From: an uncultured Prevotellaceae bacterium
GTDB taxonomy: Bacteria; Bacteroidota; Bacteroidia; Bacteroidales; Bacteroidaceae
Direction: 5' to 3'
NCBI GenBank assembly: GCA_900314985.1
Contig: OMXL01000004.1
Coordinates: forward strand, 7,502 to 71,501
Length of the DNA: 64,000 nucleotides
The stretch's first letter is position 1. Each line of letters begins with the position of its first letter. Below are positions 3,235-37,774 of this stretch, one piece after another. Position numbers and translations under genes: made by a program. The notes below the pieces were generated by a model that was not told the DNA's origin, did no database searches, and saw only the letters and a list, made by a program, of their open reading frames with translations.

Positions 3235-3328
3235 CAGTTAATAATAGGTTAGGTATAAAGAAAGACTGTTTATTAAGGATTCAATGAAAATTTGTCTGGG
3301 AAATGGCGACATTTTCCAGACTTTTTTG

Positions 3329-3336
3329 TATCTTTG
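3329..3336 (+). promoter_or_regulatory. -7 promoter element of the SusR-like regulator
   Basis: TATCTTTG 22 bp before ATG 3358. Confidence 0.7.
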
Positions 3337-3357
3337 TGCCCAAGAAACCAACATGAA

Positions 3358-5037: not shown

Positions 5038-5044
5038 TAAAACA

Positions 5045-6229: not shown

Positions 6230-6239
6230 GCAGAACTTC

Positions 6240-8543: not shown

Positions 8544-8579
8544 GTATTTTGTTTTGTGTGTATTGAGTAATATTTTTGG

Positions 8580-8667
8580 CAAAAGTAACAAATAATTTTG
8601 AAATAGCCACATGATTAAAGAAAAAAGAATAGAAGAACTGTCGTTTTACAACTTTTTTGTACCTTTG
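8580..8667. promoter_or_regulatory. Divergent -7 elements for bglX and the GH43-esterase gene
   Basis: TACTTTTG (minus, 8580-8587) and TACCTTTG (plus, 8660-8667). Confidence 0.7.
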
Positions 8668-8722
8668 CAGATAGTATTTTAATACGACAAATTTTATAAC
8701 TAACAAAAAACAATAATTCAAG

Positions 8723-22730: not shown

Positions 22731-23675
22731 TTATTGTTGCCACGTCCATTCTTTCTCCATCTGCGAATGTGCGATGTTCTCTACCTGGTTCTCGATATCG
22801 TCTGGTAGATTGCAGAAGAAGTCGATGCCGGTATTATTCTGGAGTGCCTGAATGGTAACGGCGTAGCTCTTGATACTAGATGATGTATAGCTGTCTTGGG
22901 GAATCCAGAAACCAGTAGCTTTGAAGCTGGTGCCCTTCTTGCCGAGTACTGCCATGAAGAAGTATTTGGGTACAGGAATTCTATTGTTGCCGCTACCAAG
23001 ATATTTAATAATCCATTCGCTCTTGTCGATAGTGCCGCCCTTGCAGACAAACAATGTGTCGAATTTTTTTGCCCATGTGCGTACCTGGTTCTCCATTTTT
23101 TCCCAAATGCCAGCGTTGAAATTGTGATTTTGTGGCTGCATATTGGTCATACAGAATGTTTGTCGATTAGCTTCTTCAGAGCATACTCGGTCTTGTGATG
23201 GACAGATGTGTCCATGGTCATATCCTGAGCCTTTATATGAATCTTTTGTAAACTGGTATTCTGTAGGTAGTTCAGGGTCGTTTGGATATTGGCCTGTTGC
23301 GTATGATAAAGTGTTGTCTACGTCGTGAGCCTTGTCATATCGTTGAACATATTGAGCATTCACATCGCTGTACATTTGGTAGCATGTCCAACGTTGTGCG
23401 TGCATCTCAGTATCCCATTCTACACTGAAATTTACGACAGTTTTGTTGTTGGTGAGTTTTGCGTTATGCACCACAACTACGCTTTTGCCCCCTTTCAGTG
23501 CAGGGAACTCAAGGTTGTACTTGGCAATTTCAGGACCTGATGATTGACGATCGTCAGGCTGTACGGGAGTGTCTTCACCCTTTTTGCCACCAATATTGTA
23601 CTCATTGCTGTCGTCTCCGCAAGCTACGAAGATCATGAGAAGTGCTGCTGATAGCAGTAAATGAAGCTTTTTCAT
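22731..23675 (-). CDS. Lipoprotein DNA/RNA non-specific endonuclease (beta-beta-alpha-Me, NUC family)
   Basis: Lipobox FVAC followed by acidic GDDSNE; YDHGHICPS active site, TNMQPQ..NFNAGIWEKME, IPVPKYFF. Confidence 0.9.
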   Translation of the reverse strand: MKKLHLLLSAALLMIFVACGDDSNEYNIGGKKGEDTPVQPDDRQSSGPEIAKYNLEFPALKGGKSVVVVHNAKLTNNKTVVNFSVEWDTEMHAQRWTCYQMYSDVNAQYVQRYDKAHDVDNTLSYATGQYPNDPELPTEYQFTKDSYKGSGYDHGHICPSQDRVCSEEANRQTFCMTNMQPQNHNFNAGIWEKMENQVRTWAKKFDTLFVCKGGTIDKSEWIIKYLGSGNNRIPVPKYFFMAVLGKKGTSFKATGFWIPQDSYTSSSIKSYAVTIQALQNNTGIDFFCNLPDDIENQVENIAHSQMEKEWTWQQ

Positions 23676-23828
23676 AGTGTCGGATTTTTTAGTCTTATTA
23701 GTTAGTTGTTTTGTATGTTTCTGTTTTGAATGGTAAAGGTGCCCACAAGGCATATGCAACTACCCTGTACGCACCTTCAATGTCTTGTTCAGCGTGAAAT
23801 ATCTTATTGTTTCACAACCAAACCTCTC

Positions 23829-24083
23829 TTACTTCTTGGCTGCCTTACCGTAGCGGCTCATGAACTTGTCGACGCGACCAGCGGTGTCGACGAGCTTGCT
23901 CTTACCGGTATAGAACGGGTGAGAAGTGCTCGAAATTTCAATCTTTACCACAGGGTAAGTTTCGCCTTCGAACTCTACAGTGTCGTTAGTCTTAGCGGTA
24001 GAGCGCGAGAGGAACATATCGCCGTTGGACATGTCCTTAAACACGACGGGGCGATAGTTTTCTGGATGAATACCTTTTTTCAT
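23829..24083 (-). CDS. rpmE2: 50S ribosomal protein L31 type B
   Basis: [17 protein letters not shown]...[11 protein letters not shown]...DTAGRVDKF. Confidence 0.97.
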
Positions 24084-24134
24084 TTTACTTGTTAATTAAT
24101 ATCTGTTATTTAATATAAGTGCATATTGCGGCTG

Positions 24135-24142
24135 CAAAGGTA
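24135..24142 (-). promoter_or_regulatory. Bacteroidota -7 promoter element for rpmE2
   Basis: TACCTTTG on the minus strand (TAnnTTTG consensus). Confidence 0.75.
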
Positions 24143-24256
24143 CAAAGAATTTTTGAACTACGCAAATGTTTTTGAGCTTTATTTTCTTTTTTGTATTAAA
24201 GATAGGTACGTGGCGCGGGTGTACCTGGGTTTGCGATTAATGCCGTCGATGCTGTA

Positions 24257-24433
24257 ACAGCTGTTCTCGTTCATGAGACAGCTGTTCCCGAACATGAGAT
24301 AGCTGTAGCCAGCAGCGAGACAGCTGTATATGCGGAAAAGTCGTAGGACTTTCTGGAAAGTGGTACGACTTTTCCAAAAGTGGTACCACTTTCTGATGGG
24401 AACAGCCAATACATGGCTGTGTACAGCTGTCTC
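24257..24433. repeat. Composite palindromic repeat cassette (21-bp and 20-bp periods)
   Basis: ACAGCTGT-core 21-mers at 24257, 24278, 24299 and 24320, plus a further core at ~24422-24433. Three 20-bp hairpin units at 24335-24394, including the perfect palindrome AAAGTGGTACCACTTT. Confidence 0.8.
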
Positions 24434-24564
24434 GTTACCGTATTAGCCACTCCCGTATGTGGGATAGTCACTCTTTTCAGTATATTAGTCATTTTTTGGG
24501 GGATGCATTAATAATGATCGCGTGCGGGTGTACCGTGCGCGCGCGAGTTCGTTTCAAAAAATAT

Positions 24565-24775
24565 CCTTCACCTTCACCAGCAAGGCCGGAAATGCCGTGT
24601 ACAAAGGCTTTCCGCCCATCAGTACCCGAAATGCGCTTTCAAATTACCTTCACCCATCCTTCACCTTCTGCATTGGTGAAGGTTCGATGAAGGTTCCACA
24701 TACCTTCGCGCTCGCGGGAAATGCCCGCGAACCTTTATTTATAGAGCATTTTGGCATTAGCGGTGAAGGTGAAGG
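24565..24775. repeat. ~210-bp element with terminal inverted repeats and central hairpin (MITE-like)
   Basis: CCTTCACCTTCACC at 24565-24578 and GGTGAAGGTGAAGG at 24762-24775; internal ACCTTCA..CCTTCACC / GGTGAAGG..TGAAGGT at ~24646-24694. Confidence 0.7.
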
Positions 24776-25203
24776 TTATTTTTTGTGTTGCAAGGTGATG
24801 GCTTCCACCAGGCTCGTGAGCAGCCCCCTTTGAATCCTGCCACAACCTGCCCCAGATGCTTGCCGTCTGGCAAGTCCTCTTTTACTCTCACTATCATGTG
24901 GATGTGGTCGGGCATGATGCAGACTTTCCAGATCTCTATCATTTTATAGAAGTGCGGAATCTTCTTTATCTCCTCGTTGTAGATGGCCTTTCCGAGTTCT
25001 GTCAATTCTACGTGAGCTCCCTGTTGTTGTGTGGGCATAATCAATCTCCCCAGTACAGGCAACCTGCCATCAACCACCAATGTCAGCATGTAGGTGCCTT
25101 TGCGGTGATAGTCATGCCATGGCTTACGGCGCTTCATGTTATGTCGCGCCTCTTCGACTTTTACACCAGCCGCAATCGCTTCTTCTCTATTTCTGGACAT
25201 TAT
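24757..25203 (-). pseudogene. Truncated Y1/HUH transposase (IS200/RAYT-like)
   Basis: R..WHDY....TYMLTL N-terminus and CIMPDHIHMI HUH motif. The ORF runs into the inverted-repeat element and stops with no recognisable downstream catalytic Tyr helix. Confidence 0.75.
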
Positions 25204-25275
25204 GGTTAGAAAATAGTTTTCCGTACAAAGATACACATTTCCCTCCAGTATTCCAAACTATTGCAATGTTTTTGC

Positions 25276-25313
25276 AAAAAAAAACGGCTGCACGCCAGAG
25301 TAGGGTGCAGCCG
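25276..25313 (-). terminator. Intrinsic terminator (paralogous to 27725-27760)
   Basis: Minus strand CGGCTGCAC...GTGCAGCCG followed by a T-run. Confidence 0.85.
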
Positions 25314-25337
25314 ATTGATATAAGTTTGCTCGATGAC

Positions 25338-27158
25338 TTATTTCTTTGTCAGTGTGGCATCGTCAACGATAACATCCTCACCAGATGAGTAGTTACTAGA
25401 TTTTGGATTCATCACAATCAGGCATACGGTCGTTTCTGCATCCAGCGTGAAGTCATAACTTATCTGCTGCCATCCTGCACTTAATGTAGTATAGTCTCCA
25501 TAAGTGTAGTTGCCTACTGCCCCATCAACTACAGGAACATAACCGGGACGAACCTGGGCTATGTTTTCAGAAGTTGGTTTTACCCAGAATGAGAAGTTGT
25601 AAGAACCAGCAGCCAGTTTGATTTCCTGACTGGCAAGGCGCTTGTTAGCGGTTGTATTTCCCTTTACGATGCATGCATAGTTGCCACCGTGAGCATCTGT
25701 GCTCTGTTCCAGCGTTGCTGAGCTGGCTGTAGAAGCAGATTTCCAACCAGTAGGAAGATTGTTAGCCCATGTCTCGAAGTTACCGTTGGTTAGAGAGGTT
25801 GCAGCTTCACCACCGCCACCACCTTCTTCACCGTCAAGCTGAGGAGCCTGACCATTTACGCTGATAAGAGTTCCTGAGTTCTGTGCCGTTTCTGGTGTGT
25901 TACCGTTGTAGTTCATCAGTTTACCGCTAACAATGACTGTAGCACCTTTAGGAATCTTATATCCTTCCTTGAGAGCTTGGCCATCAGCACCCTTTACGCG
26001 GTATGCCTTAAATTTCTCAGAAGCTCCCTCGGTATCAACCATGTCAAATGTCGCATTTTTGTAGCTGTCAACAGTATATTCTGCATTAACAATACCCTTA
26101 ACGTAGAAAACCTCTGTGGTTGCAGTTGTTCCAGCTTCTTTACACTTTGCAACTGCAGCTGCTACGTTAAATGGATCAGCCTGTGTGCCTGTACCTGCAG
26201 GGATAATAGTCTGTCCACCGCCACCTCCTTGACCACTTTCTGCTGTTGCTCCATTCAGTGAGTAGATGTAGGCTTGTTTGTTTGCGGTTTCTGGCGTATT
26301 CCCGTTGTAGTTGATGACCTTGCCACATAGAATGACATTGTCACCTATGGCTATCTGTGTGTTGCCATCTTCCCATGCTTTATTGCCCAAATAGTAGCAA
26401 CCATATGCCATAAACTGCTTGTCACTTTCAGTACCGTCGTCAGTGATGTTAAAAGTGGCAGTACCATACTGAGCACTGAAGGTGTATCTGATGCTGCTGA
26501 TTTTTCCCTTGATATAATAGACTTCCTCTGATGTGACGCCACCTTCCATAGCAGCCACGATGTTGTATGCCTGTGAGGCAGTAAGTGGATTGGTTGCAGT
26601 TCCTGTAGAGCCAGTCTCACCGCCAGTTCCACCACCTTCTGTCTGGCCGTTAATGGAAACAATGCATGCCTGACCTTGTACTGTCTCTGGGGTTGTCCCT
26701 CTATAGTAAACAACCTTACCACGGACAACAACCTTGTCACCTACGTTGACGTTGAGAGCTGTTGCATCGCTGTACATCTCATTGCCAAAATATAAGCCGC
26801 GGTAGAAAGTCAGAGTTGTCATGCTATACTCTGTGTCGGCCATCGTAAATTGAGCGTTGCCATATTGCACATTGAAAGCTTCTCTTACAGTTCTGACATA
26901 GCCGGTAATGAAGAGTTCGTTTTCCGATGGTGTGTCTGCACCCAAACCTTTGATGTATTCTACTGCAGCAGCTACATTGAACGGATCGGCTTCTGTTCCT
27001 GACCCTTTCAGCTCGTCTTGTATAAAAGAAATTTGCCTGATTGTGCTGATGTCAAAAATTGCAGTCTCGCCATTACTGCCCTCAACAACCATATATTCCT
27101 GTGCAAACAACAGGGTTGTGCAGAATAATGCTACTATGGTAAATAAATATTTTTTCAT
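25338..27158 (-). CDS. Secreted protein with 3 putative OB-fold repeat modules + C-terminal CBM4/9-like beta-sandwich
   Basis: SPI signal; three G.GT..DP(F/L).V/A...PET modules; C-terminal NGNFETW...VDDATLTKK domain shared with 27784-29589. Confidence 0.75.
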   Translation of the reverse strand: MKKYLFTIVALFCTTLLFAQEYMVVEGSNGETAIFDISTIRQISFIQDELKGSGTEADPFNVAAAVEYIKGLGADTPSENELFITGYVRTVREAFNVQYGNAQFTMADTEYSMTTLTFYRGLYFGNEMYSDATALNVNVGDKVVVRGKVVYYRGTTPETVQGQACIVSINGQTEGGGTGGETGSTGTATNPLTASQAYNIVAAMEGGVTSEEVYYIKGKISSIRYTFSAQYGTATFNITDDGTESDKQFMAYGCYYLGNKAWEDGNTQIAIGDNVILCGKVINYNGNTPETANKQAYIYSLNGATAESGQGGGGGQTIIPAGTGTQADPFNVAAAVAKCKEAGTTATTEVFYVKGIVNAEYTVDSYKNATFDMVDTEGASEKFKAYRVKGADGQALKEGYKIPKGATVIVSGKLMNYNGNTPETAQNSGTLISVNGQAPQLDGEEGGGGGEAATSLTNGNFETWANNLPTGWKSASTASSATLEQSTDAHGGNYACIVKGNTTANKRLASQEIKLAAGSYNFSFWVKPTSENIAQVRPGYVPVVDGAVGNYTYGDYTTLSAGWQQISYDFTLDAETTVCLIVMNPKSSNYSSGEDVIVDDATLTKK

Positions 27159-27631
27159 TTCTTTACGATTTTAATTGTTTGACTTTTTCCTACTCTTACA
27201 AGATAAACGCCTTTCTGTTGTCCGCTAAGGCTGATTGTTGCGGTATCGCCACTACGGCTGATGCTGCCACATTGGCGTCCTGCCATATCACATACCATGA
27301 TACGGTCACCTTGTGACAGTCCGTTAATCTCCAAATGGTCGGCATCCGTCTGTTTGTACACCAACGCATCTTTCAACGTTTCTTTCAGACCGGTGTGATC
27401 GCCTGTGAAGTAGAATCGCTTCACCTGGCTGCGTTCATAATCTGTCTGCACGCTTTCTGTTTTAATCCTCAGTAGTGTGCCTTCAATTGTCAGTACTGGC
27501 TTGTCCTGCAATACATAATTTGCAGTCTGGCCAGTGGTCAGCTCAACGACAAGCGTCGTCTCTGCTGCCAATGCACTGAGTGGCAGCAATAGTGCTGCCA
27601 GAAAAAGCCATTTGAGTCTTTTCATAATCAT
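27155..27631 (-). CDS. Small T9SS type-A C-terminal-domain protein
   Basis: Signal peptide; C-terminus IMVCDMAGRQ...ISLSGQQKGVYLVRVGKSQTIKIVKK; 4-bp overlap with the downstream gene. Confidence 0.75.
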   Translation of the reverse strand: MIMKRLKWLFLAALLLPLSALAAETTLVVELTTGQTANYVLQDKPVLTIEGTLLRIKTESVQTDYERSQVKRFYFTGDHTGLKETLKDALVYKQTDADHLEINGLSQGDRIMVCDMAGRQCGSISRSGDTATISLSGQQKGVYLVRVGKSQTIKIVKK

Positions 27632-27724
27632 TTATGTTTTAGGTTTGCAATATTTGTATGTCTGCAAAGATACAATATTTCTTTTAATAACGCAAGTGTT
27701 TTATGCATTTTCTTTTGCACAAAC

Positions 27725-27760
27725 AAAAACGGCTGCACGCCCGAGGGTGGGGTGCAGCCG
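27725..27760 (-). terminator. Intrinsic terminator (paralogous to 25276-25313)
   Basis: Minus strand CGGCTGCAC...GTGCAGCCG-TTTTT. Confidence 0.85.
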
Positions 27761-27783
27761 TATGGTATGAGTCTGATTGCTAC

Positions 27784-29589
27784 TTATTTTTTAGTCAGAG
27801 TTGCGTCGTCAACGAGTACATCCTCGCCAGATGTGTAGGAATTTGCTTTTGGATTCATAACTACCAAGCATACGGTAGTTTCTGCTGCCAGTGTGAAGTC
27901 ATAGCTAACCTGCTGCCATCCTGCGTTTAGTGTTGCATATTCTCCATATTGATAGCTGCCTGCTGAACCATCAGTAACGGGTACATAACCAGGACGAACC
28001 TGAGCCTTGTTCCCACTAGTTGGTTTAACCCAGAATGAGAAGTTGTAAGAACCTGCTGCCAGTTTTATCTCTTGGCTGGCAAGGCGCTTGTTTCCAGAAG
28101 TTCCGCCACCTTTTACCAGGACAGAATAGCTACCTCCATGGGCATCAGTACTCTGTTCAAGAGTGGCTGAGCTTGCTGTACATGCCGACTTCCAACCAGT
28201 TGGCAGACCATTAGCCCATGTCTCAAAGTTTCCGTTGGTCAGTTCAGATGCTGCTTCACCGCCGCCGCCAGTGCCACTTCCGCCACCACTAGTACCATCA
28301 TCAAATTCAGGAGCATTGCCGTTCACGCTAATCAGTGTACCGCTGTTCTGAGCTGTTTCTGGCGTATTGTTACTGTAATTTACAAGTTTACCACTAACAA
28401 TTACTGTAGCGCCTTTTGGAATCTTATAGCCTTGTTTGAGGTCCTTGCCATCAGCACCCTTTACACGGTATGCCTTAAATTTCTCAGAAGCTCCCTCGGT
28501 ATCAACCATGTCGAATGTTGCGTTCTTGTAGCTGTCAACAGTATATTCTGCATTAACAATACCCTTAACGTAGAAAACCTCTGTGGTTGCAGTTGTTCCA
28601 GCTTCTTTACATTTTGCAACTGCAGCTGCTACGTTAAATGGATCAGTCTGTGTGCCTGTACCTGCGGGTGTTCCTGGCGTGACGCTTCCACCACCACCGT
28701 CACCAGTAGCTGTACCATTGATACTTACGATATAAGCTCCGGTAGCTGTTTCAGGAGTATTGCCCTTAAAGTTTACAACAGGACCATAAACGATGATGAC
28801 ATCACCCTTGTTCACTTTGAAACCTTCTTCGAAGTCCTTATTATTGGCACCCTTGCAACGGAATACCTTAAATTTGTCAGAAGAACCTTCTGCGTCAACA
28901 ATCTCAACTTCAATGTTCTTGTAGCTGCCAACGGTGTAGTCTGCATCAGCAATACCCTTAATATAGTATTTCTCTGTAGAAGCGGTTTCGCCTACCTCTT
29001 TACATTTTGCAATAGCAGCCGCAACATTGAATGGGTCAGCTTCGGTACCTGTGCCCTTAGCTTCGCCAGTACCACCACCGCTTGTGCCACCGCCAGTACC
29101 ATTGATAGATACTACGTAAGCCTTACCCTGTGAGGTCTCAGGGGTTGTGCCCTTATAGTAGATAACTTTACCACAGATGACAACCTTGTCGCCAACATTA
29201 ACGCCAACAGCAGATGCATCGCTGTATTTGACGTTGCCGAGATACAGGCCACGATAGAACGTGAAGACGCTCTTGCCATTCTCTACGTCAGCAATCTTGA
29301 AAGTAGCATTGCCATACTGAGTACCAAAAGCCTCAGTTACTTCTGTAACGATACCTGAGATGTAAACATCAATTGGCGACTCTGCATCAGAGCCTAAACC
29401 CTTGACATAATCCAGAGCAGCAGCTACGTTGTAGGGGTCTGTAGCCGTACCGCTACCAGCGGGATCGACCGTAGTCGAAGAACCTGAATTGGGGTTGATG
29501 GGCTGTCCGAATGGTTCGGGCACGTCCTCACAACTGGTGAATGTGAAAGCCATCATGGCCATCGCAATCAGATAATAAATCTTTTTCAT
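27784..29589 (-). CDS. Lipoprotein with 3 putative OB-fold repeat modules + C-terminal CBM4/9-like domain
   Basis: Lipobox FTSC followed by EDVPEP; modules at ~29100-29465, ~28715-29065 and ~28320-28670. Confidence 0.78.
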   Translation of the reverse strand: MKKIYYLIAMAMMAFTFTSCEDVPEPFGQPINPNSGSSTTVDPAGSGTATDPYNVAAALDYVKGLGSDAESPIDVYISGIVTEVTEAFGTQYGNATFKIADVENGKSVFTFYRGLYLGNVKYSDASAVGVNVGDKVVICGKVIYYKGTTPETSQGKAYVVSINGTGGGTSGGGTGEAKGTGTEADPFNVAAAIAKCKEVGETASTEKYYIKGIADADYTVGSYKNIEVEIVDAEGSSDKFKVFRCKGANNKDFEEGFKVNKGDVIIVYGPVVNFKGNTPETATGAYIVSINGTATGDGGGGSVTPGTPAGTGTQTDPFNVAAAVAKCKEAGTTATTEVFYVKGIVNAEYTVDSYKNATFDMVDTEGASEKFKAYRVKGADGKDLKQGYKIPKGATVIVSGKLVNYSNNTPETAQNSGTLISVNGNAPEFDDGTSGGGSGTGGGGEAASELTNGNFETWANGLPTGWKSACTASSATLEQSTDAHGGSYSVLVKGGGTSGNKRLASQEIKLAAGSYNFSFWVKPTSGNKAQVRPGYVPVTDGSAGSYQYGEYATLNAGWQQVSYDFTLAAETTVCLVVMNPKANSYTSGEDVLVDDATLTKK

Positions 29590-29637
29590 ATTGTTTTTCG
29601 TTTTTGTTTATTCGTATGTTAGTATTAGAATGCGTAA

Positions 29638-31689
29638 TTACTCAGCAAGTTCTGGAGCACTGCCGTTAACGCTGATAAGAGTTCCGGAATTCTGTGCCGT
29701 TTCTGGTGTGTTTCCATTGTAGTTAACAAGCTTACCACTAACAACCACGGTAGCACCCTTCGGAATCTTATATCCTTCCTTGAGGCCTTTGCCGTCAGCA
29801 CCCTTTACACGGAATGCTTTAAACTTTTGTGAAGCTCCCTCGGTGTCAACCAAGTCGATTGTTGCGTTTTTATAGCTGTCAACAGTATATTCAGCGTTCA
29901 CGATACCCTTTACAAAGTATATGTCTGTGGTTGCTGTCGTTCCAGTTTCTTGACACTTCGCAATAGCTGCTGCAACATTGAAGGGGTCTGCCTCTGTTCC
30001 TGTACCTTTGGCTTCCCCAGTTGCACCGCTGCCACTGTCTTCACCGTCAAGTTGAGGGGCTTGTCCGTTTACGCTGATAAGAGTTCCAGAGTTCTGTGCT
30101 GTTTCGGGTGTATTTCCGCCGTAGTTAACAAGCTTGCCGCTAACAATCACTGTGGCACCCTTAGGAATCTTATAACCTTCTTTTAGAGCCTTGCCGTCAG
30201 CACCCTTTACGCGGAATGCTTTGAACTTCTGTGAAGCTCCTTCAGCATCTACTAAGTCAAATGTCGCGTTTTTATAGCTATCAACTGTGTAGTCTGCGTT
30301 TACAATGCCTTTGACATAGAAAATCTCAGAAGAAGCAGTCTGACCAACTTCTTGGCACTTTGCAATAGCTGCTGCAACATTGAATGGGTCAGCTTCAGTA
30401 CCTGTTCCCTTGGCTTCGCCTGTGTCACCGCTGCCGCCTTCGCCACCTCCATCACTGTTAAGAGAATATAGGTATGCTTTGTTCTGTGCTGTCTCAGGTG
30501 TAGAACCATAGTTGTTGACGAATTTTACCACCTTACCACAGATAACGACCTTGTCGCCTTTCTTGACTTGAGTGTCAGAAGCGGTGAACTTCTTGTTGCC
30601 AAGGTAAAGACCACGATAGAATGTGAATGAGTTGCTTGCAAATTCATCATCGCTGACAATGAATGTTCCATTGCCGTACTGAGTGGTAAACTCTTCAGTA
30701 ATGCTGGTAATAATACCAGAGAAGTACACGTCGTTTGGAGATTCTACATTGTCGCCAAGTGACTCAACATAAGCCAGTACGCCTGCTACGTTGTAAGGAT
30801 TATCTTTCGTTCCTGTACCTGCAGGATCTGGAGGAGTGATGGGTTCGTGTGTAGATTTCTGGATGTCGTCCTGTGTGCGAGGCATAATCTGCCATGTGTT
30901 GTTATAGCGTGCAGCAATACCTGTGATGTCAATAGCTTCAGTAGGCATAATCATGGCAGCATACTTTGCATATGTGCTGGTACGAACTACCACGTTGCTC
31001 ATGCCGTCGATGTCACGATTAACGCAACCGCCAACAAGCTGAGCACTACCATCGCCTGGAGCAAAGGTTATCTTACCGTCAGCGCCTTTCATCTTGACGC
31101 CAACCAATGTAATTAGTTTGCCACAGTCTTTCTCCATATCCAGTGCACTCATGCTGCGAATTTCTTCAGGTTTAGCGCTAAGACCTTCCACAGGAGAAAT
31201 CAACTTGAAATGGTCTTGCCAGGTATAGCGGCTCATGCGACCGACCTGATCCATGTTCTTGCTATCGTTGTGATAGAAGGTGCCAATCTCAGGCTGTTTG
31301 CCATAAGCGCCAATATAGAGACCCTCCAGTTCGATGAGCATGCACTGACCAACAGCAGCTTCGCTGAAGATACCGCTCTTGTCGATGCTCATATAGAGAG
31401 AACCGGTGCCGTCAGATACATACAATTGTTTATAGAGGTTGCTACCTTCATCGTTGCCGGTAACAATCACCTTAATCTGTGTGGGCTTGGTAATCTGCTG
31501 CAGACCATTGTCGCTGATGACGCTCTTGTACTGAGTCTTCAGAGCGGCGATAGTTACCACATTGGTCTCTTGGATGTACTGATTACCATAGCTCTCCATT
31601 CCAGCTTCCGCCGAAGGTTCGTCCCAAGTGTGGCACGCTGCGGCAAAGATAGCTGAAAGTGCTAATAGGAAAATATTTCTTGTCTTCAT
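29638..31689 (-). CDS. Lipoprotein with DUF5689-like N-terminal domain + 3 putative OB-fold repeat modules
   Basis: Lipobox AAAC; VTGNDEGSNLYKQLYVSDGTG and VVRTSTYAKYA...WQIMPR (DUF5689-like); modules at ~30457-30825, ~30064-30415 and ~29663-30012. Confidence 0.78.
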   Translation of the reverse strand: MKTRNIFLLALSAIFAAACHTWDEPSAEAGMESYGNQYIQETNVVTIAALKTQYKSVISDNGLQQITKPTQIKVIVTGNDEGSNLYKQLYVSDGTGSLYMSIDKSGIFSEAAVGQCMLIELEGLYIGAYGKQPEIGTFYHNDSKNMDQVGRMSRYTWQDHFKLISPVEGLSAKPEEIRSMSALDMEKDCGKLITLVGVKMKGADGKITFAPGDGSAQLVGGCVNRDIDGMSNVVVRTSTYAKYAAMIMPTEAIDITGIAARYNNTWQIMPRTQDDIQKSTHEPITPPDPAGTGTKDNPYNVAGVLAYVESLGDNVESPNDVYFSGIITSITEEFTTQYGNGTFIVSDDEFASNSFTFYRGLYLGNKKFTASDTQVKKGDKVVICGKVVKFVNNYGSTPETAQNKAYLYSLNSDGGGEGGSGDTGEAKGTGTEADPFNVAAAIAKCQEVGQTASSEIFYVKGIVNADYTVDSYKNATFDLVDAEGASQKFKAFRVKGADGKALKEGYKIPKGATVIVSGKLVNYGGNTPETAQNSGTLISVNGQAPQLDGEDSGSGATGEAKGTGTEADPFNVAAAIAKCQETGTTATTDIYFVKGIVNAEYTVDSYKNATIDLVDTEGASQKFKAFRVKGADGKGLKEGYKIPKGATVVVSGKLVNYNGNTPETAQNSGTLISVNGSAPELAE

Positions 31690-31703
31690 AATGCTTCAGT
31701 GTT

Positions 31704-34322
31704 TTAGAATCTGTAACCAATGTTCAGCATACCGTTGATACCCCAAGCATAGTATTTCTTCGGGTTCTTGTCGAAGCGGTACAGGCGGCTGGTATTGATT
31801 TCGCCATCATTAGAACCGATAGAGTAGTTACTACGACTCTGCTCGTAACCGCCAGTACACAACTTTGTGTTGTTCAGCAGGTTGGTCAGCGAGAGGTTGA
31901 TAGACAGCTGGCCTGACTTCATGCGGATGGAACGACCAATGCTCAGGTCCATCATAAAGCCGCCCTTACCCTTTGACTGGTCAAGGGCACTCTGGATAAC
32001 GTTGCCGTCATCGTCGAGAGTGCGCTCGGCATCAATACCACGAGCAATGGCTGCCTTGTTACGGTTTACGATGGTGCTCTCATAGCGATAAACGGGTGAG
32101 TAAGAGAGGTAGATGCGATCGTAGTAGTTACCGCTCAAGTCAATGAACCAACCACTAGCGCTGTAGCTCAGTGTCACGCCATAGACTGACAGTGGGGTAC
32201 CAGCTTCACGCATGTTCTTATTTAATACAGTCTCTTCTGCATAGAAATTGTCATCCTCGATAGGTTTTGCAGAACTCATGTAGCGTACGCGGGCATTGTT
32301 CGTGTTCTTTGCCTCGCTGATAGCTGCCAGAGCGCGGATGCTCCATGCAGAGTTGAGAGAAGCTTTGATACCTAACTCTACACCGTAGTACTCTTTCTTG
32401 ATACCTGTCATAGATACGTAAGAGAATGAGTTGATGTCATCGTCGAAGAAGTTCTGCCACTCAGTAACATCGCTCAATTTGCTGTAGTAGGCATTAACGT
32501 TGGCTTTGAGCCATGTAGTAGCAAACTGATAGCCAAACTCGCTGCTGAAAATCTTTTCGTTCTTCAGGTTTGCACAGAACTCGTTGGTCATCTCAGGAGA
32601 TACGAATACTGCGTTGGCAGTAGGAGTCTTCATCTCATAGCCTGCACCGATGCTAATGACGTTACCTGCACCGAGGTTATAGGTCAGACCGCCCTTTACA
32701 CCACCGTCAAGGAAACGGGCTGTCTCGCTCTTACCGAAAGAGCTAAGTCCCATGCTCTCGGCAATACCGTTGCGCATCTTGCCATCGCGCTGCATGCTGG
32801 TACCTGCAACACGACCTGAAAGGAAGGCAGCCAAAGATTTCTTCTGGTATTTCAAAGCAGCCCAAACCTGTGCCTTGTTGACCAACAGGTTGTAGTCGTA
32901 GTTCATCTTGTCTCCCTCTTTCACTACAGCATTGGGATTGTTCAGGTCGTACTGGATGCGAGGATCCGTAGCACTGTAAGTTCCCAAAGCGTAGGTGTTG
33001 ATGTCGTGGAAGACGTTTGCACCCAACAAGTCGTCCATGGTCTTGTAGTGAGCACCCTGGTTTGTTCCCAGGCTGAAACCGATATTCAGGTTAGTGGTCT
33101 TGCTCAGAGTGGTCTTCAGGGTAGATGCCAATGTCAAGTTCAGCGTGTTAATGTTCTTAGCTTGCACATAGTATTTAGCATCGCTGTTGGTGGCATTGCC
33201 CTGACGGTTGGTGTAGTACATGCGATCCCAGTTGATCTGGCGAGCTTCCTCGCTACCCATAAAGTAGGTACGAGCATAGTAGTACTTGTTGTAGCCATCG
33301 GCATTGTTGGCGGCTTCGTCATACCATACATCGTAGTAGCTTGATGGCATGAGCTTCCAGTAGTCTGGAGCGGGGTTCTCACCACCATTGTATCCCAGAC
33401 TTGTACCTTTGTACATTGAGTAGCGGCCAGTCAGTGCTGTCTGCACTTTCATGTTGTCGTTAATCTTCCAGTCCCAGTTGATGAGTACTGTAGGTGAAAA
33501 GTCCTTTACAACGCGAGAGTTACGAACTTTACCGTCCTGATAGCCCCAATAGGGGTTGTAGTAGTTGCTGTTGGCCATCCAGTATGCCTCGTCAGTAGCT
33601 GCGCCTTGTGAGGCACGCTCTGTGGGACTACCCCAGGTGATGAAGGCTACTGAGTGGGCATCGTTGAACTTCTTTTCAGCACCGAAGAAGTATGACAGCG
33701 AGTTGTAGAAGGTTCCCTTTGCATAACCGCGCTGTGCCCAACGATAGGTCAGACCACCAGAGATAGCCCATCCGTCGGGTCTCAGACCTGTGTTGTAGGT
33801 GTACATGCCACGAACGGTGTAGCTACGGTTGGCACCAGCAATTGATGCATACTGTCCGGTTGCCATACGGCTGGGTCGGAAATCGTAGTTATTAGAGCCC
33901 GCCATTGACGGCATTGAGAAGTTGTTGAACTCGAAGGGCAATGATGTCTCGCGGCCACTGTTGGTCTGACGGTTCAAACCGCCAATCAGTGCAAAACGGA
34001 ACTGTCCTGACTCCATGTCGTTCATGGGAGCACCGTTAATGTAAATCTCATTGTACTTTTGATTAAAAGCACGATAGCGGAAGCGTCCAGCGCTGAACTG
34101 GAAACCAGACGAATTGGCAAAGATGTTCTGATTCGATGAGATAATCGATACATTCTGAGACATGTCGTCGTCTTCGCCCAATTGTGCTTCCGTGAAAGTG
34201 AAGGCTTGCTCGTTCAGGACAGCCTGCTCTTCCTCCGTGACCACAGTGGTCTTGGGCTCCTGAGCAAACGCAGTCGTAGCGACGAATAGAGCCAACACGG
34301 CTAAATGAAGCTTTTTTTGCAT
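31704..34322 (-). CDS. TonB-dependent outer-membrane receptor (non-SusC)
   Basis: Signal peptide; plug-like FRYRAFNQKYNEIYINGAPMND; beta-barrel strands; terminal LNIGYRF; no SusC signature and no SusD partner. Confidence 0.85.
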   Translation of the reverse strand: MQKKLHLAVLALFVATTAFAQEPKTTVVTEEEQAVLNEQAFTFTEAQLGEDDDMSQNVSIISSNQNIFANSSGFQFSAGRFRYRAFNQKYNEIYINGAPMNDMESGQFRFALIGGLNRQTNSGRETSLPFEFNNFSMPSMAGSNNYDFRPSRMATGQYASIAGANRSYTVRGMYTYNTGLRPDGWAISGGLTYRWAQRGYAKGTFYNSLSYFFGAEKKFNDAHSVAFITWGSPTERASQGAATDEAYWMANSNYYNPYWGYQDGKVRNSRVVKDFSPTVLINWDWKINDNMKVQTALTGRYSMYKGTSLGYNGGENPAPDYWKLMPSSYYDVWYDEAANNADGYNKYYYARTYFMGSEEARQINWDRMYYTNRQGNATNSDAKYYVQAKNINTLNLTLASTLKTTLSKTTNLNIGFSLGTNQGAHYKTMDDLLGANVFHDINTYALGTYSATDPRIQYDLNNPNAVVKEGDKMNYDYNLLVNKAQVWAALKYQKKSLAAFLSGRVAGTSMQRDGKMRNGIAESMGLSSFGKSETARFLDGGVKGGLTYNLGAGNVISIGAGYEMKTPTANAVFVSPEMTNEFCANLKNEKIFSSEFGYQFATTWLKANVNAYYSKLSDVTEWQNFFDDDINSFSYVSMTGIKKEYYGVELGIKASLNSAWSIRALAAISEAKNTNNARVRYMSSAKPIEDDNFYAEETVLNKNMREAGTPLSVYGVTLSYSASGWFIDLSGNYYDRIYLSYSPVYRYESTIVNRNKAAIARGIDAERTLDDDGNVIQSALDQSKGKGGFMMDLSIGRSIRMKSGQLSINLSLTNLLNNTKLCTGGYEQSRSNYSIGSNDGEINTSRLYRFDKNPKKYYAWGINGMLNIGYRF

Positions 34323-34377
34323 AAGAATGTTTTGTTTTAAATTGTGTTTTTGTTATTTCGGTTCAAAGATTCTGCTG

Positions 34378-34468
34378 CAAAGATAATGAATTAAATGCAA
34401 AAAAAAGTATCTTTTCGTGTTTTTTTTTGAAAAAAATTAGAATATCTCAAAAATAATGCGTATCTTCG
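34378..34468. promoter_or_regulatory. Divergent promoters for receptor operon and nuclease operon
   Basis: TATCTTTG on the minus strand (34378-34385) and the TATCTTCG variant on the plus strand (34461-34468). Confidence 0.6.
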
Positions 34469-34483
34469 CAGCAATAAATCTAA

Positions 34484-35539
34484 ATGATTATGAAAAAACT
34501 ACTATCCTTAATGGCCGTTTTGTTCCTGGTAGGAACGATAAACGCATTGGCACAGGAGAAGAAATATTCTGTCTATGCCATTGGTTTCTACAACCTTGAA
34601 AACCTATTTGATACCCTTCATGATGAAGGTCATAATGACTACGAATACTTGCCGGATGGCAGGAATAAGTGGACAGGTATGAAGTATCGTAACAAGCTAA
34701 AGAATATGTCGCGCGTATTGGCAGAGATGGGTACCGACGTGTTACCTACTGTAGGTGCTGCTGCCATCGGTGTCTCTGAAGTAGAGAATGCAGGATGTCT
34801 GAAGGATCTCTGCGAACAGGAACCCCTGAAGAAGCGTAACTTCCAGTATGTACTCCTTGAAGGCCCTGACCATCGTGGTGTTGACTGCGGTCTGCTATAC
34901 AATCCGGCATTGTTCACATTGCGCAACGTAAAGTTGGTACCTTATATATATGATAAGCCTGAGGATGCACGTCGTGCTACCCGTGGCTTCTTGGTATGTA
35001 GCGGTACACTGGCCGACGAACATGTTACCATTATTGTCAACCACCTGCCCTCACGTGGCGCAACGAGCTACTATCGTGAGTTAGGTGGCAAACAAATCCG
35101 TGCCGTGAAGGACTCATTGCTGAAGGATGACCCCAACGTAAAACTCTTCATTATGGGTGATATGAATGACGACCCTGCTGATCCTTCTATGTCAAAGGCT
35201 CTTGGTGCCCAGCGCGAACTGGAGGATGTGAAGCCTGGTGGCCTGTTCAACCCATTCTGGAATATTCATGCCAGTGGTACGGGTACGTTGATGTATGATG
35301 GTAAGTGGAATCTCTTCGACCAGATTATCATGTCGCACTCTCTGCTGAACCAGAAGGGAAAGAAGGATTATTCGACGCTGAAGTACTGGAAAGCTCAGAT
35401 CTTCCGTCGTGACTATCTGTTCCAGCAGGAAGGCCGTTACAAGGGTAACACCTTGCGTACGCATGCTGGTGGTGTATGGCTTAATGGCTATAGCGACCAC
35501 CTGCCTACACTGGTATATATAGTAAAAGAACAAAAATAA
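34484..35539 (+). CDS. Secreted endonuclease/exonuclease/phosphatase (EEP, DNase I-like) protein
   Basis: FYNLENLFDT, GVSEVEN, VNHLPSR, MGDMND, WNLFDQI, YSDHLP; SPI signal peptide. Confidence 0.92.
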   Translation: MIMKKLLSLMAVLFLVGTINALAQEKKYSVYAIGFYNLENLFDTLHDEGHNDYEYLPDGRNKWTGMKYRNKLKNMSRVLAEMGTDVLPTVGAAAIGVSEVENAGCLKDLCEQEPLKKRNFQYVLLEGPDHRGVDCGLLYNPALFTLRNVKLVPYIYDKPEDARRATRGFLVCSGTLADEHVTIIVNHLPSRGATSYYRELGGKQIRAVKDSLLKDDPNVKLFIMGDMNDDPADPSMSKALGAQRELEDVKPGGLFNPFWNIHASGTGTLMYDGKWNLFDQIIMSHSLLNQKGKKDYSTLKYWKAQIFRRDYLFQQEGRYKGNTLRTHAGGVWLNGYSDHLPTLVYIVKEQK

Positions 35540-36154
35540 ATGTACATTATCGGAATTGCAGGCGGTACAGGATCAGGAAAGACCACCGTCGTAAAGAGAA
35601 TTGCCAGCGTGCTGCCACCTCATTGTGCAGCAGTAGTACCATTGGACTCGTATTATAACGATACGACGGGAATGACCGACGAAGAGCGTAAGGCCATCAA
35701 CTTCGACCATCCTGATGCCTTCGACTGGAAGTTGCTCACTGAGCATATCAAGATGCTCAAGAGTGGTCAGGCCGTTGAACAGCCTACCTATTCTTATCTC
35801 ATCTCCAATCGCCTGCAAGAGACGATACACGTAGAACCTAAACCCGTTATCATTCTTGAGGGAATCATGACGCTTCACTATAAGAAGTTGCGTGACATGA
35901 TGGACCTAAAGATATTCGTGGATACCGACTCTGACGTTCGTCTGATTCGTAACATTCGTCGTGATGTGGTAGAACGCGGACGTACTGTCGACATGGTGCT
36001 TGACCGCTATGAGAAAGTCCTCAAACCCATGCACGAACAGTTTATCGAACCCACCAAGAAGTTTGCGGACCTCATCATTCCCTGGGGTGGCGACAACAAG
36101 ACGGGTATCCATATCCTCAAAACCTATATCGAAGGCATTGTTACCAATGTATAA
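35540..36154 (+). CDS. udk: Uridine kinase
   Basis: GIAGGTGSGKTT, DSYY, NFDHPDAFD, ILEGI, RLIRNIRRDV.ERGR, FIEPTK..AD. Confidence 0.95.
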   Translation: MYIIGIAGGTGSGKTTVVKRIASVLPPHCAAVVPLDSYYNDTTGMTDEERKAINFDHPDAFDWKLLTEHIKMLKSGQAVEQPTYSYLISNRLQETIHVEPKPVIILEGIMTLHYKKLRDMMDLKIFVDTDSDVRLIRNIRRDVVERGRTVDMVLDRYEKVLKPMHEQFIEPTKKFADLIIPWGGDNKTGIHILKTYIEGIVTNV

Positions 36155-36812
36155 CGGAGAGAAAACAGTAGAAGAGAGTGGCGCAACCACTCTCTTCTTA
36201 GTACGTCATGGTGAGACTGTCGATAATGCCCGACAGATCATGCAGGGACAGACGCAGGGGTGCCTGAATGAGAAGGGTAGAGAACAGGCCCAGCAGGTGG
36301 CGCAGCGACTGGCAGGAGAAGCGATTGATGCCGTTGTTGCCAGCGACCTGCACCGCGCCATACAAACAGCTGAAATCATCGCCGCGCCTCATGGTTTACC
36401 TGTAAGGACTACTAAACTGCTTCGCGAACGCGACTGGGGAGGTTTTACAGGACGTTATATTCCCGATTTGAAAGGCGAGGTATGGCCTGATGACATAGAA
36501 AGTGAACAGGCCTTGTTGCAGCGTGCTGCTGACTTTCTGCAATACATAACGGCCACCTATCCCGGTAAGCGGGTGGTGGCCGTAGGTCATGGCATTATCA
36601 ACAAAGCTATTTTATCTGTTTATGCGGGATGTACGATGCGCGAGGTGCAACGTATGATGAATGCTGAGGTGCGTATCTTAACGACGACTGCCGAACGAAC
36701 CGCTGCTTCTGCTGCCGCCGCTATGGCTGCTACTGCTGCGGCTGCCTCCTCCAAAACCTCCACGACTGGCGCTGCTACTGCTGGAGCTACTACTGCGGCT
36801 ACTGCCGAATGA
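36147..36812 (+). CDS. Histidine phosphatase (phosphoglycerate mutase family) with Ala/Thr-rich read-through tail
   Basis: LVRHGET, SDLHRAIQTA, LRERDWG, VGHG. The tail lies antisense to the 3' end of the next gene. Confidence 0.88.
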   Translation: MYNGEKTVEESGATTLFLVRHGETVDNARQIMQGQTQGCLNEKGREQAQQVAQRLAGEAIDAVVASDLHRAIQTAEIIAAPHGLPVRTTKLLRERDWGGFTGRYIPDLKGEVWPDDIESEQALLQRAADFLQYITATYPGKRVVAVGHGIINKAILSVYAGCTMREVQRMMNAEVRILTTTAERTAASAAAAMAATAAAASSKTSTTGAATAGATTAATAE

Positions 36813-37601
36813 GCCATTGCTGCGGCTACTGCCAAATGATCCTCCATTGCTGCCGCGGCTGCTGCCAAATGAGCCACTGCTGCGGCTGCTACCGAATGAG
36901 CCACTGCTGTGATTGACAGTAGTACGTGTAGAACTGGTGCGTGGTCCTCCAGAGTTGTCTGGACGATGATGACCCTTGCCATGGTTTGTGCTGGTGCCAC
37001 CATGATGACCTGTTGTACCGCCATGATGTCCTAAGTTTCCTCCGTGATGACTTGGCTTTCCACCGTGATGGTGGTGGAAGTCACCGCGATTCCAACGATC
37101 TAACATGCCAAAGTGTGTATGTCTTGCAGGACGGAAGTGGTGGCGGTGGTGATAGTAGTAACCGTGTGTACCATGCAGATGCCAGGCGTGAGCACCACGA
37201 TAGGTGGCATAGAACACTGGACGTCCGAAATAGAAGTAGTCGCGATGTGGATAGCGGGCATAGATGCCGAAATGCCAGTAACCGTCGCTCCAGTATAGTG
37301 GACGGTAGAAATAACTGGCAGCGATATATGCCTGCCACTGTGCATCAAGGAGTATGTAGCTAAGGTCGCGGTTGCGGCGCTCCCAGTAGTCACCATAGAC
37401 GTCATCGTAGCTCGTTACACCCATCAGGTAGTCGAGGTTGATTTCGTAGGCGGCCTCATACTGCTCATCAGTCAGATTCAGCTCGTAAGCCATTTTATCG
37501 GTCAGGAACAGTGCCTCATTGCGAGCCTGTTCGTAACTCATTGCCTTGCCCGATGCTGCTATCGTCAGCATACCGAAAAGGGCTATCATCATCTTCTTCA
37601 T
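36678..37601 (-). CDS. Exported hypothetical protein with LTxxQ motif and His/Gly/Ser-rich disordered tail
   Basis: Signal peptide; LTDKMAYELNLTDEQY; aromatic/His-rich middle; GSFGSSRS repeats. Confidence 0.75.
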   Translation of the reverse strand: MKKMMIALFGMLTIAASGKAMSYEQARNEALFLTDKMAYELNLTDEQYEAAYEINLDYLMGVTSYDDVYGDYWERRNRDLSYILLDAQWQAYIAASYFYRPLYWSDGYWHFGIYARYPHRDYFYFGRPVFYATYRGAHAWHLHGTHGYYYHHRHHFRPARHTHFGMLDRWNRGDFHHHHGGKPSHHGGNLGHHGGTTGHHGGTSTNHGKGHHRPDNSGGPRTSSTRTTVNHSSGSFGSSRSSGSFGSSRGSNGGSFGSSRSNGSFGSSRSSSSSSSSASRGGFGGGSRSSSSHSGGSRSSGSFGSRR

Positions 37602-37628
37602 AATTGCAAGTATTAATTGTTCACGTTG

Positions 37629-37774
37629 CAAAGGTAGGAAGAATATGGACATAGTACAAAGGATTATCCCTATACCCTCAGGGGGATTTCCCTATACTTG
37701 GCTTTGGAAAAACATACTAAACCTCGGAAAAAGTGAAATATATTTGCTTTTTCGCTCACTTATTCGTACCTTTG
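37629..37774. promoter_or_regulatory. Divergent promoters with a direct repeat
   Basis: TACCTTTG minus (37629-37636) and plus (37767-37774); TCCCTATAC at 37667 and 37689 (22-bp period). Confidence 0.6.

Follow-up and report, generated by a model that had tools for sequence, protein, structure and literature searches.

A candidate ddb-type locus for capture, import and degradation of nucleic acid, with nine OB modules, in an uncultured rumen Prevotellaceae bacterium

Transporter, module proteins and nucleases of the locus

The locus described here occupies positions 22731–36812 of a stretch of 64,000 nucleotides (contig OMXL01000004.1 of assembly GCA_900314985.1, uncultured Prevotellaceae bacterium), which is referred to as the window throughout. 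It comprises a gene for an outer-membrane receptor without SusD, a same-strand run of secreted proteins carrying nine related modules of about 125 residues with a predicted OB fold, and two secreted nucleases, and it is interpreted as a relative of the DNA-utilization locus ddbABCDEF of Bacteroides thetaiotaomicron. A preliminary description, made from the letters alone, had placed the receptor at the head of a run of two lipoproteins and one protein with a signal peptidase I (SPI) leader that together carry the modules, a divergently transcribed nuclease of the EEP (endonuclease/exonuclease/phosphatase) type abutting udk and a phosphatase gene, and a second lipoprotein nuclease with a DHGH motif downstream on the receptor strand. 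The open reading frame (ORF) map, the module alignment and the domain assignments with Pfam and NCBIfam agreed with this layout, including the signal-peptide types. Three further features emerged: a 158-residue protein with a type IX secretion system (T9SS) tail, a hairpin, a transposase ORF and rpmE between the receptor operon and the second nuclease gene, and the absence of a signal peptide from the phosphatase. No gene of the locus matched SusD or the SusC/RagA family in Pfam or NCBIfam, and neither a linked regulator nor a glycoside hydrolase was seen in the locus.

The receptor gene (31704..34322, minus strand) encodes the putative DdbC-like transporter (872 residues, SPI leader, C-terminal Phe), for which no match of its own was obtained in Pfam or NCBIfam. 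A model calculated with AF2 from 36 homologues gave a barrel over residues 150–872 (pLDDT mostly 70–85) with the 22-stranded C-terminal architecture of TonB-dependent transporters (TBDTs), and the top 50 Foldseek matches in the PDB were all TBDTs (PqqU, Fiu, FhuA, BtuB; E down to 2e-21). Residues 58–142 were aligned to residues 131–215 of the homologue P0481 (31 % identity overall, E 7e-149), which lie inside the above-cutoff Pfam Plug match of that protein; the window protein itself has no Plug match, and a putative diverged plug was placed at residues ~43–142. Because the barrel matches TBDTs and the plug region aligns with P0481, the modelled receptor is classed as a diverged transporter of the TonB-dependent type. 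Its family holds more than 4131 homologues (1684 clusters at 50 % identity), some of them named TonB-dependent receptor, and most members of the family carry an N-terminal CarboxypepD_reg domain that is missing here. Sequence searches of the PDB with the receptor, the DUF5689 protein, the EEP nuclease and the CBM-like domain gave no useful matches.

The next gene (29638..31689, minus strand) starts 15 bp after the receptor stop codon and encodes a DdbD-like surface lipoprotein of 683 residues, so that a DUF5689 gene stands directly downstream of the transporter gene, as in ddb. The DUF5689 domain (PF18942, E 5.9e-57) covers residues 42–276 (DNA 30862–31566) and is followed by three OB modules at 30439–30825 (subtype A), 30049–30435 (B) and 29647–30033 (B). 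The third gene (27784..29589, minus strand) encodes a lipoprotein of 601 residues (lipobox FTSC followed by EDVPEP), a probable SusE/F-like capture protein, with modules at 29083–29469 (A), 28696–29082 (B) and 28303–28689 (B) and a C-terminal CBM_4_9-like domain at 27874–28242 (E 2.5e-11). Its paralogue of 606 residues (25338..27158, minus strand) carries modules at 26631–27017 (A), 26235–26621 (A) and 25836–26222 (B) and a CBM-like C-terminal domain at ~25341–25796. The two genes form a tandem duplication (~80 % nucleotide identity, period 2446–2467 bp), in which the second copy has an SPI leader in place of the lipobox and is immediately preceded by the gene of the 158-residue protein (27155..27631, minus strand). 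The latter combines an SPI leader with a T9SS type-A C-terminal sorting domain (TIGR04183, E 1.5e-6, 28.1 bits against a cutoff of 23), and its stop codon overlaps the start codon of the 606-residue gene (ATGA). Its N-terminal part, comprising the leader and the first residues, shows weak similarity to that of the 606-residue protein (BLASTP E 0.006), a hint that the paralogue acquired its SPI leader from this small gene.

On the opposite strand, across an AT-rich intergenic region of 161 bp (34323..34483) with the presumed promoters of both operons, lies the gene of the EEP-fold nuclease (34484..35539, plus strand). The protein matches Exo_endo_phos_3 over its full length (PF19580, E 3.3e-93), carries an SPI leader, is predicted to be periplasmic and is probably DdbB-like. 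The gene of the cytoplasmic uridine kinase Udk (35540..36154, plus strand; NF004018, E 4e-86) begins without a gap at the EEP stop codon, and the ATG of the histidine phosphatase gene at 36147 (36147..36812, plus strand; His_Phos_1, PF00300, E 8.8e-42) overlaps the udk stop by 8 nt. The phosphatase is predicted to be cytoplasmic because it has no signal peptide, and the arrangement of the three genes is that expected of one tight operon.

The second nuclease, NUC (22731..23678, minus strand), is a predicted lipoprotein of the DNA/RNA non-specific beta-beta-alpha-Me endonucleases (Endonuclease_NS, PF01223, E 4.9e-44) with an intact DHGH motif; its true start is probably the Met codon at 23678. 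It could be aligned with EXOG, EndoG, NucA and the Serratia nuclease through GYDHGH and the metal-binding (Mg) Asn (E down to 4e-17), and the residues GDD after its lipobox FVAC agree with the export signal published for lipoproteins, C-x-(D/E)(D/E). The secreted nucleases of both types found in ddb are therefore present, the EEP nuclease with an SPI leader and NUC with a lipobox (CGDD). Between the receptor operon and NUC lie a hairpin resembling a terminator, a truncated RAYT/IS200-like ORF and rpmE (ribosomal protein L31; 23829..24083, minus strand).

Conservation, assembly and flanking sequence

The gene order was compared with that of 82 related loci, namely the best 80 of 584 hits from one scan of species-representative genomes (down to 40 % identity) and two contig look-ups, so that 83 loci were compared with the window counted. 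All 80 scan loci belong to Prevotellaceae or to Bacteroidaceae as defined by GTDB; the closest named genome among the loci listed is that of Prevotellaceae bacterium MN60 (receptor 80 % identical), and the receptor of Segatella copri is 56 % identical. Each locus was scored with profiles made from the window proteins. A DUF5689 gene adjoins the receptor gene in 75/81 loci, an OB-module gene comes next in 59/73 (65/73 if a CBM-like domain alone is counted), the EEP gene lies divergently upstream in 64/77 of those with enough flanking sequence, and NUC is met further down the receptor strand in 54/68, usually as the gene right after rpmE. Both nucleases thus travel with the receptor in most of the loci, a synteny that had been named beforehand as a check of the functional proposal, and the core of the locus is kept across the Prevotellaceae, S. 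copri among them. One locus with a receptor 55 % identical to that of the window (L022) has the typical Prevotella-type layout and comes from a metagenome-assembled genome (MAG) labelled Flexilinea sp. (Chloroflexota), probably because the public record was binned or labelled wrongly.

The gene udk was found beyond the EEP gene in 38/60 loci, all of them in the Prevotella clade; in more distant loci hisS and other genes stand in its place. In most Prevotella loci a gene of about 600 bp on the same strand lies between EEP and udk, which in S. copri (L035, 8086–8655) encodes a protein of 189 residues of the UDG superfamily that resembles DNA-deoxyinosine glycosylase (TIGR04274, 46.7 bits, below cutoff). 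Neither the window nor the relatives closest to it have this gene, and EEP therefore abuts udk in the window. In the more distant L084 (39 % identity; a very abundant cluster of 1821 member sequences), hisS-EEP is divergent from DdbC-DUF5689-lipoprotein-NUC, and the five genes from EEP to NUC form one compact cluster with neither rpmE nor udk. Because NUC is retained there, it is regarded as part of the system, rpmE as a bystander (although the pairing of rpmE with NUC is kept in Prevotella) and the linkage of udk as lineage-specific. An assignment of udk as an integral component was considered and downgraded, as the linkage is limited to one clade and usually interrupted by the deoxyinosine-glycosylase-like gene.

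The surface-exposed proteins vary far more than this core. Across the loci the third gene keeps the lipobox, the following C-EDVP-x-P and the CBM_4_9-like C-terminal domain, while its middle part consists of OB modules in most Prevotella loci and of two choice-of-anchor-J domains in L084 (NF038128, E 2.5e-12). In L001 (12649–16149), the receptor of which is 88 % identical to that of the window, the DdbD-like protein is composed of DUF5689, one OB module of a third subtype and a C-terminal domain that looks choice-of-anchor-J-like when read by eye, and the third gene has the order OB, OB, CBM, OB. Since such close receptors are accompanied by different accessory domains, the surface-exposed components of the system seem to have their domains reshuffled very rapidly, and the rapid exchange of modules between close relatives suggests that selection acts on the cell-surface part.

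With nine modules the window is an outlier among the 83 loci: at least one module was detectable in 66 of the other 82, with a maximum of four and a median of two. The excess has two sources, the addition of two B-type modules to the DdbD-like protein and the tandem duplication of the OB/CBM gene. The preliminary description had suggested that the novelty may lie in the module expansion and in the coupling to udk; the former is borne out by these counts, and the latter is tight in the window but confined to the Prevotella clade. The gene of the 158-residue protein occurs in the window only and is absent from the 82 other loci; it is present in metagenome unitigs.

The duplicated arrangement was examined for assembly errors. 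Unitigs from four metagenomes of two studies matched 24589–26028 and 26150–28495 without differences and at even depth, and because the junctions are reproduced exactly in this manner, the arrangement of nine modules is genuine and not an assembly artefact. In the transcript assemblies a contig joins 26058 to 28526. A single-copy strain variant was rejected as its explanation, given that the joint sits in a stretch of 86 bp common to both paralogues and that the DNA unitigs also end at these repeats; the behaviour of the assembler is the best explanation of the joint. In metagenome X7, one contig of low depth (16 versus ~179) joins 25316 to 29086 and skips 3769 bp, with only 30 bases on one side; a minor strain variant that lacks the duplicated segment may lie behind it, or an artefact of the assembler. 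Altogether 95–99 % of the sampled words of the window were present in bovine gut and rumen metagenomes.

Contigs of four rumen metatranscriptome runs were placed on the region, and approximate word depths were obtained; contig depth is a poor measure of expression and the assemblies may contain DNA, and such contigs show presence in transcript assemblies, not regulation. The receptor, EEP and udk genes were covered in all four metatranscriptomes. Word depths were 12–122 for the receptor, 11–192 for EEP, udk and the phosphatase, mostly 1–42 for the module genes (a few bins near zero), 0–16 for NUC and 200–1189 for rpmE.

Further elements lie in and beside the locus. The stretch 24100–25330 is an insertion relative to close relatives and contains several short G+C-rich hairpins, a terminator-like hairpin just after the 606-residue gene and an ORF for a truncated REP-associated/IS200-like Y1 transposase (24757..25236, minus strand; PF01797, E 4e-5, partial; NF047646, 31.5 bits, below the cutoff of 80). 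This ORF is absent from the relatives L001 and L002 and is an insertion, not part of the system; RNA depth was 0 in the bin 24402–24968 and almost 0 over 24969–25535 in three of the four runs, although metagenome DNA is present. At the other end, a gene on the minus strand (36678–37652) converges on and overlaps the phosphatase ORF and is kept beside it in L001 and L002. It encodes a protein of 324 residues with a signal or transmembrane leader, a His-rich middle part and C-terminal repeats of the GSFGSSR type, without a Pfam or NCBIfam match, and its metatranscriptome contig depth (92–1476) is by far the highest of the region after rpmE. No RNA family was found in the window with Rfam, and a scan for sigma-70 promoters and terminators did not exceed the shuffled expectation, Bacteroidota promoters being outside the coverage of that scan.

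OB modules and proposed function

The nine modules share 14 invariant columns (GT..P...G...Y...D...G...G...TPET...S.N) and fall into four of subtype A and five of subtype B, with 53–88 % identity within B and ~35 % between A and B. An AF2 model from 60 sequences (pLDDT 95.4) consists of a helix followed by a small beta-barrel, and its best matches in the PDB were the anticodon-binding OB domain of LysRS and RPA32. In Pfam the modules match the nucleic-acid-binding OB families PF01336 and PF13742; with PF01336 (cutoff 27) two of the three module proteins score above the cutoff (683-residue protein, 32.1 bits; 606-residue protein, 31.4 bits) and the 601-residue protein below it (22.2 bits), the S. 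copri orthologue reaching 28.4 bits. Descent of the modules from DUF5689 was also considered and, as far as sequence can tell, rejected (hhalign probability 0.6 %).

A profile search returned 83 mostly single-module proteins of 71–225 residues, and all three whose surroundings were inspected stand in nuclease loci. Of these, L087 and L089 are of the ddb type, and the third (L088) is built on a different transporter (OMP_b-brl_4 type, 1107 residues) without BLAST similarity to the window receptor. L088 shares both nuclease families, Endonuclease_NS and Exo_endo_phos_3, with the window locus. Its gene order (2856–10091) is BACON protein, single OB-module protein, lipoprotein with BACON and Endonuclease_NS, and Exo_endo_phos_3 nuclease, and the locus may be related to a B. 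thetaiotaomicron variant with BACON to which Bechon et al. refer. From the fold, the Pfam OB matches and this nuclease context, capture of nucleic acid appears the likeliest role of the modules, with odds moderately in its favour. The OB fold that the preliminary description had assigned to them was upheld by Pfam and AF2; the binding of nucleic acid that it had attached to the fold keeps the standing of a prediction, the modules being acidic and two of the module proteins ending in CBM_4_9-like domains.

The function of the whole locus is read by homology, here from its genes, as a pathway of the ddb type for the capture, cutting, import and degradation of nucleic acid (probability about 0.75), because the homologous ddbABCDEF has been tested experimentally and the defining parts are present in the window. 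Sharan et al. (bioRxiv 2025; PNAS 2025, PMC12478041) described ddbABCDEF of B. thetaiotaomicron as a DNA-utilization locus and called it PUL-like, that is, similar to a polysaccharide utilization locus (PUL). It encodes three active secreted nucleases (DdbA, DdbB, DdbF), the TonB-dependent transporter DdbC, the DUF5689 protein DdbD, which is predicted to cap DdbC, and the signal peptidase II (SPII) type accessory protein DdbE (PMC12478041). Deletion of ddbABCDEF abolishes DNA depletion and the production of uracil and xanthine in vitro, and deletion of ddb lowers both compounds in gnotobiotic mice (PMC12478041). Binding, cutting and import of extracellular nucleic acid through a PUL-like receptor without SusD, as the preliminary description had proposed for the window, have thus been demonstrated for the homologous system (PMC12478041), and its suggestion that a simpler locus of receptor, DUF5689 protein and nuclease occurs in Bacteroides was right.

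Transferred to the window, the pathway would begin with the cleavage of extracellular DNA or RNA by the surface lipoprotein NUC, for which the catalytic motif and the export signal are seen. The fragments would be held by the DUF5689 lipoprotein (DdbD, the SusD analogue, atop the barrel) and by the OB-module lipoproteins as analogues of SusE/F; this capture step is suggested by the fold, the Pfam OB matches and the strict co-occurrence with nucleases. The OB lipoproteins had been proposed beforehand to replace SusD, SusE and SusF together, of which the SusE/F part is retained and the SusD part falls to DUF5689. Oligonucleotides would then be imported by the DdbC-like barrel, with the barrel fold modelled, a plug suggested by homology and energy presumably supplied through TonB, and would be degraded in the periplasm by the SPI-type EEP nuclease in analogy to DdbB. 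After dephosphorylation and uptake, uridine and cytidine would be trapped by Udk, presumably made from one transcript with the EEP nuclease in this lineage, and this salvage of pyrimidine ribonucleosides would be a lineage-specific add-on. The additional modules presumably raise avidity or widen the range of substrate forms.

Several observations speak against this pathway. The plug region of the receptor is poorly modelled (pLDDT < 50 for residues 1–147), and no TonB box was identified, the invariant stretch FTFTEAQLGEDDD (residues 41–53) being a candidate only. The Foldseek match of the module is weak (E 2.7e-3, TM 0.46–0.53), and the modules are acidic (pI 4.5–7.7 in the window, median 4.7 over 148 modules), a rare property among proteins that bind DNA and one that speaks against a simple electrostatic mode of binding. 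A CBM_4_9-like domain closes two of the module proteins, relatives swap modules for choice-of-anchor-J modules to which no function is assigned, the 606-residue paralogue has neither a lipid anchor nor a recognisable T9SS tail, and the linkage to udk is absent outside the Prevotella clade.

The acidity of the modules, their richness in aromatic residues and the CBM_4_9 match would also suit a ligand other than nucleic acid: the OB modules and the CBM_4_9-like domain might bind a glycan, for instance so as to anchor the cell or its nucleases on polysaccharides of plants or microbes. Oligosaccharides are among the possible ligands of OB folds, and the profile comparison of the modules with DUF5689 shows no similarity. 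Such a role is nevertheless considered very improbable, in view of the placement of the modules in nucleic-acid-binding OB families by Pfam, the anticodon-binding and single-stranded-DNA-binding OB domains as nearest structures, the occurrence of the modules only beside nucleases in the contexts looked up, even with an unrelated receptor, and the lack of a glycoside hydrolase in the locus.

The nucleases could instead serve mainly to remodel extracellular DNA in a biofilm or matrix, or to evade DNA traps of the host, with the transporter in a minor role. The version of the locus in strain VPI-5482, BT3560–3563, was found by Bechon et al. (2022) through a bile-dependent biofilm defect on loss of the DNase BT3563 (PMC8851478), and secreted DNases of P. 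intermedia alter biofilm and degrade neutrophil traps (PMC12568770). As a main role this is judged unlikely, because it leaves the strict pairing of the nucleases with a transporter, a DUF5689 lid and a periplasmic nuclease unexplained, as well as the ddb-dependent output of uracil and xanthine. The matrix role and the import role are not mutually exclusive.

A third possibility starts from Riemerella anatipestifer, in which a transposon screen found a barrel protein and a DUF5689 protein to be essential for transformation (PMC8459023). The authors of the ddb study relate their locus to these genes, RA0C_RS04915/04920, report a neighbouring ddbB-like nuclease and conclude that the two systems share ancestry (PMC12478041). 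The window locus might accordingly be the outer-membrane DNA-uptake stage of natural transformation, in which the modules would capture long DNA for intact import, the more so as relatives of the window locus carry the CarboxypepD_reg and choice-of-anchor-J domains of the Riemerella pair. This too is given a low probability: two nucleases are conserved, one of them a lipoprotein at the cell surface whose family degrades strongly and without specificity; a nucleoside kinase is co-transcribed with the locus; results on DNA uptake in gut Bacteroidales are inconsistent; and no competence genes lie beside the locus among the annotated neighbours in L001 and L002.

Within the preferred reading of capture, import and degradation, a wider proposal can be made, which is put forward tentatively and is thought less probable than its negation. 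The OB modules of about 125 residues may be a previously unnamed family for the capture of nucleic acid at the cell surface, a counterpart of carbohydrate-binding modules; they may have multiplied, been exchanged with choice-of-anchor-J modules among ddb-type loci and been recruited to the nuclease locus on an unrelated transporter (L088), and the window locus may be specialised for RNA and ribonucleosides rather than DNA. If this were true, the array of nine modules and the co-transcription of EEP and udk would mark scavenging of RNA and ribonucleosides. Irrespective of this proposal, nucleic acids are abundant in rumen and gut, habitats that are both dominated by Prevotellaceae, and the one characterised system of the class comes from Bacteroides and Phocaeicola. 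A conserved core that is transcribed in the rumen would extend the discovery of ddb to the most abundant lineage of the rumen and of the non-Western gut, with the modular OB lipoproteins as concrete candidates for the step of substrate capture.

Comparison with known systems

The window locus shares with ddb a barrel of the TonB-dependent type without SusD that is directly followed by a DUF5689 lipoprotein, an SPI-type nuclease, at least one SPII-type nuclease, an extra SPII accessory protein and the PUL-like logic. It differs in its host, a rumen Prevotellaceae bacterium, in its accessory proteins, which consist of tandem OB modules and a CBM-like domain, in the three OB modules of the DdbD-like protein itself, and in the position of the nuclease genes, with EEP divergent and in an operon with udk and the phosphatase gene and NUC behind rpmE. 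Four ddb subtypes (Bt1, Bt2, Pv1, Pv2) have been defined in Bacteroides and Phocaeicola (PMC12478041), membership requiring >50 % identity and >75 % coverage to a reference DdbC (e.g., WP_008762511.1). Neither B. thetaiotaomicron nor P. vulgatus was among the best 80 of the 584 hits (down to 40 % identity), a profile search of the wider receptor family gave no Bacteroides or Phocaeicola names, and look-ups of 10 cluster representatives gave MAG, Alistipes and Azobacteroides names only. The window receptor therefore probably stands outside all four published subtypes, as judged by the hosts of the listed loci. Its homology to DdbC is likewise probable on indirect grounds: the family is paired with DUF5689 (75/81 loci), and some relatives have a CarboxypepD_reg domain and bear the same NCBI name as RA0C_RS04915. 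In its main text, the PNAS paper on ddb mentions neither Prevotella nor Segatella, OB folds or uridine kinase (PMC12478041).

The Riemerella pair has the barrel family and the DUF5689 partner in common with the window. Its members are annotated as a carboxypeptidase-regulatory-like-domain protein and as a choice-of-anchor-J protein with DUF5689 and DUF5017 (PMC8459023), whereas the window proteins contain neither CarboxypepD_reg nor DUF5017/choice-of-anchor J according to Pfam and NCBIfam. Among the relatives of the window locus, CarboxypepD_reg was found in P0022, P0044 and L087 and choice-of-anchor J in L084 and, by eye, in L001. The demonstrated function of the Riemerella pair is transformation, not catabolism.

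A classical PUL with SusC/SusD and SusE/F resembles the window locus in its working logic: one hydrolase acts at the surface and one in the periplasm, the surface binding lipoproteins are built of tandem modules, and a lipoprotein forms the lid of a TonB-type barrel; the window locus departs from it in the absence of SusD and of a SusC-type signature, and its hydrolases are nucleases. Extracellular nucleases with OB domains of the PF01336 type also exist, for example YhcR of Bacillus subtilis. In both cases sugar-non-specific nucleases are accompanied by secreted OB modules that belong to the tRNA_anti-codon type; in the window, by contrast, they are not fused to the nuclease and reside on separate, non-catalytic lipoproteins in arrays of three.

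The core of the window locus is thus already known, and the locus most likely represents the ddb class in Prevotellaceae. New with respect to the main text of the ddb paper are the OB-module lipoproteins, their shuffling with choice-of-anchor-J domains and the recurrence of the modules beside nucleases on an unrelated transporter.

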